Below are positions 25,922 through 29,147 of a stretch of 64,000 bases of DNA, piece after piece. This DNA comes from Lama guanicoe (Eukaryota): the NCBI GenBank assembly GCA_013239625.1, contig MU053758.1, positions 372,001-436,000 on the forward strand. The letters are read 5' to 3'. Numbering within the stretch: position 1 is the stretch's first letter; each line of letters starts with the position of its first letter. Position numbers and translations under genes: made by a program. Below the pieces are notes generated by a model. It did not search any database. It worked only from the letters and a program-made list of their open reading frames with translations, and was not told the origin of the DNA.

Positions 25922-26017
25922 TTCATTTTTTTTTTCTATTGTCTCTTTCTCTCTCTGCAGACCATCGTATAGAATCTTGTTCTCACTCAGTCTCTTTGAC
26001 AGGTCCAAGTTCTGGTC
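25922..26017 (-). CDS. CALCOCO2: CALCOCO2 exon 10
   Basis: tggcag|; DQNLDLSKRLSENKILYDGLQREKETIEKKNE; donor GAA|GTAAGC; 96 nt. Confidence 0.95.
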
Positions 26018-26703: not shown

Positions 26704-26709
26704 TTTATT
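26704..26709 (-). terminator. Candidate intronic polyadenylation signal (AATAAA) for exon 9b
   Basis: tttatt on + strand; downstream GT/T-rich element gtgtttttgtg on the minus strand near 26651-26661. Confidence 0.4.
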
Positions 26710-26773: not shown

Positions 26774-26857
26774 CTACCCGATGACAGTGCTGACTGCAGG
26801 CTCCTGGCTCCCCATCCCCATTGGCTCCTGCTGGCTCTTCTGGTCCTGCTTCACTTC
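26774..26857 (-). CDS. CALCOCO2: Putative alternative terminal exon (9b) of CALCOCO2
   Basis: Polypyrimidine tract ctttcttatttctgccttttgag|, phase-0 frame EVKQDQKSQQEPMGMGSQEPAVSTVIG-TAG, AATAAA 65 nt after the stop. Confidence 0.45.
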   Translation of the reverse strand, partial: EVKQDQKSQQEPMGMGSQEPAVSTVIG

Positions 26858-27123
26858 CTCAAAAGGCAGAAATAAGAAAGGACTATCTGAGTCTGCACAG
26901 AAACCTGCAGTTACAAAAACCTTCCCTGAGACCCATGGCTGAGCTGGGGGTCTCTATTTCTGGGTATCCCCAGGCTGGTTTTTGGCCGCACACTCCATCC
27001 CTCCTCTTTTTGGCAGAAAGATAAATTCCTCTCCTTAACAGGGGTGTGCAATCCTCCGGGCTTGGTCCAGGAACCACACACCTTCACACCCCTTGCTTCC
27101 TGGGCCCCTCATCTGTCACCTAC

Positions 27124-27282
27124 CCGTGCGGCAGCCCTGAGCTGCCTGATCTGTCTGTGGAGCCGTTGACACTCTTTGTACTTCTCTAAGAAACAGGCTT
27201 TCCCGGCCTCTACCTTTGCCTTAAGGCGTTCCACCTCTTGTACTAACTGTTCCTCCGCTGCTGCTTTCTTGCTCCTAGGCTC
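27124..27282 (-). CDS. CALCOCO2: Putative extra CALCOCO2 exon (9a), 53-aa coiled coil resembling TAX1BP1
   Basis: Acceptor tgcttcag|, donor CGG|GTAGGT, 159 nt, phase 0-0 like flanking exons 9 and 10, no stop; EPRSKKAAAEEQLVQEVERLKAKVEAGKACFLEKYKECQRLHRQIRQLRAAAR. Confidence 0.75.
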
Positions 27283-27454
27283 CTGAAGCATAAGATACAC
27301 AGTCCTCAGAGTTAAGGGCCTTTTGGATGCATGAAGAATAAAGAATGGCTATGAGACAACTGGGGAGCTCCCAAAAATCAAGGAAACCCATATCTGCCAC
27401 AAGGAGTTTCAACCCTTTGAATGGCTACAGATGATTTATTTAGTTATAATTTAA

Positions 27455-28383: not shown

Positions 28384-29060
28384 CTGGACCCACTCTTTAT
28401 TGTATCATGCTAAAATACACAATATCTTAGATATTATAGGTACTCAATAACTGACTGAATATTAAGAGTGAATAAATGATGCATGTATTGGTTACATTCC
28501 CAGTACACATCAGGATTTCTCACGCCCTTACATCAGTGCAGAAAACTGGGCTTCTAGGCACCTGTCATCACTATGAGGCCTCTTTTCTAACAATATATTA
28601 TAGGAAATTATTAGTCAGTTAGGCTTTCATTACTATATTATACAGCTCAGAATAATTTATAATGATGATAATTGCTAACATTATATTAATTATACCAAAA
28701 TTTGTTTTGATCACTGTAATATTTTCTAATTATAGAGCTCAATTAATAATCATTAATCAGTAACTCCTTAAGGAGGGGGCAGGGGTTATTCTGTGTGATT
28801 TCTAGCCCAGGGCTCTATTTAGTACACCCTGTCATGAAGTTTAACTTCCAGTATTTCTCTATCACTCATCACGCATTAGAAATGCCCATCTTTCCTAAAC
28901 AGCGTGTAAATGGCAGATTCTCTGTCCTTTTGGGGAGAAAGAGTCTGGAGGTAAATGCTATTCTAATCTGTCATACCTATGCTTTCCACCACGTGAAAAT
29001 AGACCCTACCCCTTCCTTTCTTTAGCTCCCTCCCACATAGCCATGCAAAGACAGACATGC

Positions 29061-29147
29061 CGTTAATTCCTGTTGTTTCTTCACTGCGGCAGTTTCTTTC
29101 TGCTTCATCTCCTCCACTGTCTGCTCAAGCTTCTTCTGGTGCTCCTT
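29061..29147 (-). CDS. CALCOCO2: CALCOCO2 exon 9 (coiled coil; ends at GC donor)
   Basis: atgcag|; KEHQKKLEQTVEEMKQKETAAVKKQQELT; 87 nt; the boundary that keeps protein homology and phase is ACG|GCATGT. Confidence 0.9.

Follow-up and report, generated by a model that had tools for sequence, protein, structure and literature searches.

The 64,000-nucleotide stretch of the Lama guanicoe genome analyzed here (hereafter, the window; contig MU053758.1, positions 372,001 to 436,000) contains CALCOCO2, which encodes NDP52. When the 509-aa alpaca (Vicugna pacos) protein P0002 is aligned to the window by tblastn, all of its exons fall on the minus strand, from 38409 to 22311. Seven of the alignments are 100% identical throughout, and the rest, including that of the exon considered below, are identical within their coding part; the shortfalls outside it are intronic overhang or residues ahead of the first mapped exon.

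Three exons, all phase 0-0 and all on the minus strand, are central to this analysis. Exon 9 (29061..29147, 87 nt) encodes KEHQKK...KKQQELT, the final ...ELT being shared at this point by the alpaca protein and the dromedary model P0394; exon 10 (25922..26017, 96 nt) encodes DQNLDLSKRL...KKNE. Between them lies a 159-nt cassette exon, hereafter exon 9a (27124..27282), which has no stop from 27282 to 27124 and is translated as the 53-aa peptide EPRSKK...LRAAAR (P0001), residues 313-365 of the alpaca protein. A first-pass annotation of the window had described such a stop-free, phase 0-0 segment with an acceptor and a donor between exons 9 and 10, and the letters of the window bear it out. With a slash marking each splice junction, the minus strand reads ...tgtgtatcttatgcttcag/GAGCCTAGG...GCCGCACGG/gtaggtgac (the same boundaries are given again as ...gtgtatcttatgcttcag/GAGCCTAGGAGC...GCTGCCGCACGG/gtaggtgac). 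The acceptor region (27283..27302) is a pyrimidine-rich tract ending in tgcttcag, and the donor (27118..27123) is CGG/gtaggt, both sites being read directly off the letters. The surrounding stop-to-stop frame spans 79 codons (27109..27348).

Anatomy alone does not place this exon beyond chance: by our own arithmetic, which assumes uniform codons, (61/64)^53 or roughly 8% of random 53-codon stretches would be open, and AG...GT pairs are common. It is the homology results described below that do so. The sequence around the exon has further features. The exon 9 donor (29059-29061, minus strand) is a non-canonical GC site, ACG/gcatgt, at which both camelid models splice; GC donors are weak and are over-represented beside alternative splicing. 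The in-frame translation of about 60 nt upstream of the exon 9a acceptor (…RPLTLRT.YLMLQ, within 27109-27348) resembles that of unnamed genomic ORFs from other sources (P0003, P0004, P0008), as do the first codons past the donor (VGDR). Regulated cassette exons typically have conserved intron flanks.

A search of P0001 against proteins of 94-2000 residues returned 177 candidates, of which 50 matched at a cut-off of E ≤ 0.01: 39 entries named CALCOCO2, one fusion labeled 'hypothetical protein', and 10 unnamed Logan/ENA ORFs. No TAX1BP1-named entry is among these 50 matches. The best match is RefSeq CALCOCO2 isoform X2 of the alpaca (P0002), identical over the whole peptide. The 39 named models range from marsupials to apes and include cattle X1 (503 aa), pig (501 aa), X1 of bonobo, chimpanzee and gorilla (501 aa), and bilby X1 (521 aa), together with bats, carnivores, rodents, and monkeys. 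The exon had been proposed as hidden and overlooked, with comparison against vertebrate CALCOCO2 isoforms suggested as a check; that comparison finds it in all 39 named entries, the RefSeq/UniProt alpaca model (100%) and 38 others. Since it is already annotated, exon 9a is, in the first-pass annotation's own terms, real but not new as a sequence feature. The length of 501 aa expected for the long isoform does not apply to alpaca either: the alpaca model, with a 53-aa exon, has 509 residues, and 501 is the length of the ape form, whose exon 9a encodes 55 aa (501 − 55 = 446).

A further search, with residues 284-397 of the alpaca protein, gave 45 matches, among them isoform X1 of Camelus dromedarius (496 aa). 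The dromedary model lacks exactly residues 313-365, with ...ELT joined straight to DQNLDL, and elsewhere matches the alpaca sequence at 441 of 452 aligned ungapped positions (97-98%). Because alpaca X2 includes the exon and dromedary X1 skips precisely that exon, 9a is a cassette exon at the level of gene models, and its inclusion in alpaca transcripts is a prediction of such models only. The spliced 9-9a-10 form is found in none of the 45 matches as a transcript-assembly (Logan) protein. We rejected the 10 unnamed short Logan/ENA proteins as transcripts; they read through both splice sites and are thus unspliced genomic ORFs. No human entry is among the 15 members listed of the 33-member ape CALCOCO2 cluster. 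Full-text literature searches found no paper describing the exon, although bioRxiv supplements might hold more. One other CALCOCO2 alternative exon, a 39-nt human element unlike 9a in length, appears in a splicing-design preprint (10.1101/2025.11.05.686847).

Comparison of CALCOCO2 proteins indicates that exon 9a is under protein-level constraint. We compared 22 full-length models (at least 440 aa), drawn from the 50 matches after the fusion P0049 was dropped, with the alpaca protein. Mean identity is 89.1% for SKICH, 75.8% for the constitutive coiled coil, 83.6% for exon 9a, 65.2% for exons 10-11, and 63.0% for the C-terminus, figures that carry an ascertainment bias, as the models were fetched via exon 9a itself and lineages without it cannot appear. 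The exon exceeds its neighboring constitutive coiled coil in 20 of the 22 models, the exceptions being baboon and bonobo. We took an ungapped 37-residue core from 66 of 67 entries, one of the 66 (P0240) being a false extraction from a protein without the exon; the core equals the consensus in 13, from pig, rabbit, marmot, armadillo, capuchins, macaques, and baboon. The marsupial core differs from the consensus at four positions, mostly conservatively, and differences in exon length are whole codons: two more in primates, one more in a fur seal, and one fewer in guinea pig. The coding constraint first supposed is thus upheld at the protein level, by the invariant core and by the exon's margin over the neighboring coiled coil.

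The hominoids (ape models P0048, P0235-P0247) depart from this pattern. Old- and New-World monkeys keep the core unchanged; chimpanzee, bonobo, and gorilla carry four non-conservative changes, G>R, C>Y, R>S, and R>G, and gibbons have four to five, including C>Y and Q>E within KECQRL. On sequence grounds, these changes may mark a relaxation of constraint in the lineage whose short form is taken as canonical. We found no match to the module in representative CALCOCO2 models of gecko, snakes, birds, a toad, a caecilian, sturgeons, and bichir, where it has either been lost or been omitted from the models. The peptide has no Pfam family and gives sub-threshold coiled-coil noise only; on the 509-aa alpaca protein, SKICH (1.7e-33) is the one family at cut-off.

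To find relatives of the exon outside CALCOCO2, we searched P0001 in six frames against the 2.05-Gb genome from which the window comes. Exon 9a itself is recovered at E 2.5e-25. The best non-self match, L002 (E 0.0039; 42% identical across residues 5-49), falls in a phase 0-0 exon of 147 nt, ...ctcttag/GAAAAG...AATCA/gtaagt. TAX1BP1 of alpaca (P0340), dromedary, and many further mammals contains the 49 residues encoded there at 100% identity. The third match (L003, E 7.9) was judged to be chance, its frame not being coiled-coil-like. At this sensitivity, the genome search revealed no equivalent of the module in CALCOCO1. The 33-residue TAX1BP1 string that the first-pass annotation had given is exactly what this genome's TAX1BP1 exon encodes, and our recount agrees with its 16 identities over those 33 core residues, including EK(Y/F)KECQRL. 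The local alignment scores 91, which none of 20,000 shuffles reaches (mean 26.8, maximum 61), and the best-scoring site for exon 9a along the TAX1BP1 coiled coil is this same 147-nt exon.

The two full-length alpaca proteins corroborate the match. BLASTP of P0002 against P0340 gives collinear blocks at 21-270/7-256 (E 1e-43), 287-384/402-490 (E 2e-10, 35%), and, for the zinc fingers, 458-507/735-785, so that the block holding exon 9a lies between the SKICH/CC1 block and the zinc-finger block. The proposed homology to TAX1BP1 thus stands on a same-phase exon, a genome-wide E of 0.0039, and a BLASTP block at 2e-10. Between the first two blocks the alignment jumps from 270/256 to 287/402: CALCOCO2 has no equivalent of TAX1BP1 residues ~257-401, a stretch that includes the beginning of the second TAX1BP1 coiled coil (the published 'O domain', 320-420).

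The motif extends well beyond mammals. It is present in TAX1BP1 of Xenopus and lamprey, in newt CALCOCO2 (domain E 2.5e-11), and in a skate paralogue whose version is 9a-like, and outside the vertebrates in amphioxus, two hemichordates, and the annelid Owenia. Because lamprey, amphioxus, hemichordate, and annelid homologues also carry it, the module predates the paralogue split, as the first-pass annotation had held; comparison of these sequences supports a pre-vertebrate origin, older than had been proposed.

A further alternative exon, 9b, lies downstream of 9a on the same strand (26778..26857, 80 nt, ttttgag/GAAGTG...ATCGG/gtagcc; P0006 is among the models compared). When 9b is joined to exon 10, the frame changes and translation stops after TRTWTCQRD; when its donor is left unspliced, the reading runs to ...VSTVIG and then a TAG that overlaps the donor. 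About 65 nt past this in-frame stop is an AATAAA (26704..26709, minus strand), a motif match and a candidate intronic poly(A) signal for isoforms ending at 9b. Models ending in ...STVIG or ...STVTG exist. Proteins that end there would be without the galectin-8 and zinc-finger regions.

We examined the predicted structure of the long isoform with an AF2 monomer model of P0002, built from a 14-sequence alignment (mean pLDDT 65.6). The model has a helix at 147-298, a low-confidence break at 299-320, and a second helix at 321-409 with block-mean pLDDT of 72-91. The break takes in the last part of exon 9 together with the eight residues that open 9a, among them the near-invariant P314, and the second helix runs through the 9a core into exons 10-11. 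In a crude heptad scan, which is indicative only, exon 9 and 9a share one register and exon 10 has another, and deleting the 53 residues restores a common register; inclusion of 9a would therefore alter the continuity of the coiled coil.

The TAX1BP1 counterpart of the exon falls in a region of known function. It encodes residues 422-470 of both the 789-aa rat and the 794-aa alpaca TAX1BP1. Residues 420-506 of TAX1BP1 have been defined as an 'N domain' required for binding NBR1, and in human K562 cells canonical NDP52 is absent from the NBR1/TAX1BP1/SQSTM1 complex (Ohnstad et al., PMC7737610). A 2024 study in EMBO J found the N-domain sufficient for NBR1 binding and L442 and Y449 of TAX1BP1 essential, with the LIR1 region of NBR1, including F740, as the site for TAX1BP1 (PMC11611905). 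The mutagenesis primers of that study fix the residues as the L of KLR-L-QMAADHY and the Y of DH-Y-KEK, and in P0327 and P0340 both are inside the 422-470 exon. By residue numbering and sequence, then, the exon is the core of the published N-domain. Because this TAX1BP1 exon spans residues 422-470 and holds both L442 and Y449, the one exon that canonical NDP52 skips is the paralogue of the NBR1-binding segment of TAX1BP1. The alpaca NDP52 residues aligned with L442 and Y449 are V336 and F343, conservative and not identical; the F343 position is Y in several rodents and L in guinea pig. Our full-text literature searches found no paper linking CALCOCO2 exon 9a to the TAX1BP1 N-domain.

With the sum of this evidence, we consider it likely that exon 9a is a genuine, old, and optionally included coding exon of CALCOCO2/NDP52, one that would give the long isoform an N-domain-like docking surface. 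Inclusion of 9a would insert a 53-residue helical module into NDP52, and skipping it would yield canonical NDP52. A near-invariant proline, placed at a predicted hinge, would start the module, whose core would run on as a single helix into exons 10-11. The long isoform would thereby gain a docking surface with V336 and F343 at the L442 and Y449 positions, which the canonical short form would be without.

Two readings of the exon would deprive it of this role. The first holds that it is a relic or an annotation artefact, an ancestral exon no longer spliced in and spread among gene models by protein-homology prediction. Consistent with it are the lack of a spliced Logan transcript-derived protein among the 45 matches (the 10 unnamed ORFs being unspliced) and a canonical human protein without the exon, as stated in the first-pass annotation and in agreement with 501 − 55 = 446. 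Disuse, however, would not leave the frame open, the splice sites intact, and the 37-aa core invariant in placental orders and marsupials alike, and the exon is likewise free of stops in the unspliced genomic ORFs of 10 further unnamed sources; we regard this reading as very improbable. A better, but still unlikely, case can be made that 9a serves mainly as an entry to 9b, giving a truncated NDP52 or a target of NMD in place of a full-length long isoform. The peptide of 9a is followed by that of 9b in 15 of the 60 gene models examined, and another two, from gibbons (P0234, P0247), break off within its first few residues. The 9b tail, conserved from marsupial to placental, occurs in models of cattle, buffalo, macaques, capuchin, snub-nosed monkey, kangaroo rat, pangolin, rabbit, armadillo, mouse lemur, and a marsupial, and the window has the TAG overlapping the 9b donor and the AATAAA ~65 nt on. 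Against it, 20 of the 22 full-length models have 9a without 9b, including those of alpaca, cattle, pig, bat, fur seal, baboon, and apes, and two cat models carry a shorter, in-frame 9b; gene models do not tell which form is abundant.

The exon could also be real and in use, and yet do nothing more than lengthen or re-phase the coiled-coil stalk, with no dedicated partner; this would alter how far apart the SKICH/LIR end and the galectin-8/zinc-finger end lie, or how they are oriented to each other. The predicted core, a plain helix continuous with exons 10-11, is what such a spacer would look like, and the heptad registers (exon 9 and 9a against exon 10, with removal of the 53 residues returning exon 10 to the upstream register) point the same way. 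A pure spacer should tolerate substitutions, yet the 37-aa core is invariant in 13 entries, and in 20 of 22 models the exon is better conserved than the coiled coil beside it. Moreover, the motif has persisted from annelid to mammal, and its TAX1BP1 version serves as a defined binding site (PMC7737610; PMC11611905). We take a pure spacer to be rather unlikely. Some specific coiled-coil partner, or an altered receptor geometry, seems on the whole probable for 9a.

If exon 9a does provide an N-domain-like docking surface, its most likely partner, by analogy with TAX1BP1, may be the LIR1 region of NBR1, an assignment that we make tentatively. The NBR1 gene of the same genome was located via PF16158 (G000 contig C5890, L009 5157-5708, minus strand); its long open frame there encodes an acidic stretch, the LIR1 core, and then ...LPECFDTS..., the docking region for TAX1BP1 mapped in the literature. 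A complex model of two copies of alpaca NDP52 313-400 with a 70-residue piece around LIR1 of this genome's NBR1 gave a median score of 0.27 against a mark of 0.34, in a run made without controls, and weighs on neither side of the question of binding. A more speculative proposal, drawn from the same analogy and doubtful as it stands, is that splicing of 9a acts as a switch: long NDP52 would dock on NBR1 LIR1 and be drawn into p62/NBR1 condensates (aggrephagy), which the short form could not do, and the accelerated, non-conservative changes in apes would represent a partial loss of this mode in the human lineage. Such a loss, were the switch real, would help to explain why NDP52 lies outside the NBR1 complex in human-cell studies.

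The sequence feature itself adds nothing to existing catalogues. Its interest is in the putative equivalence to the N-domain, which suggests an extra function for NDP52. A possible use of the result is that it joins the binding of NBR1 by TAX1BP1 420-506, the position of canonical NDP52 outside the NBR1 complex, and the skipped exon as a paralogue of that very segment. If the long isoform binds NBR1, work restricted to the 446-aa NDP52 will have missed a mode of cargo recruitment, and species and tissue differences in 9a inclusion would matter for studies of xenophagy, mitophagy, and aggrephagy.

Set beside known systems, exon 9a is closest to the long-isoform models of RefSeq/UniProt (alpaca, cattle, pig, apes, bilby), which have the same exon at the same position and are all computed models. 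Canonical, exon-skipped NDP52 (496 aa in dromedary X1; 446 aa in human, according to the first-pass annotation) has the same other exons and differs in being without the 53 residues. In the paralogous gene, the TAX1BP1 exon is like 9a in phase (0-0), in its place after an exon ending ...AVKK(Q/D)Q..., and in its predicted helical structure, and unlike it in length (147 nt versus 159 nt). NBR1 binding has been shown for TAX1BP1 only. The two genes also differ in how the exon is used: in TAX1BP1 it is present in all 110 exact matches among the 120 TAX1BP1 matches listed, whereas in CALCOCO2 exon 9a is optional.
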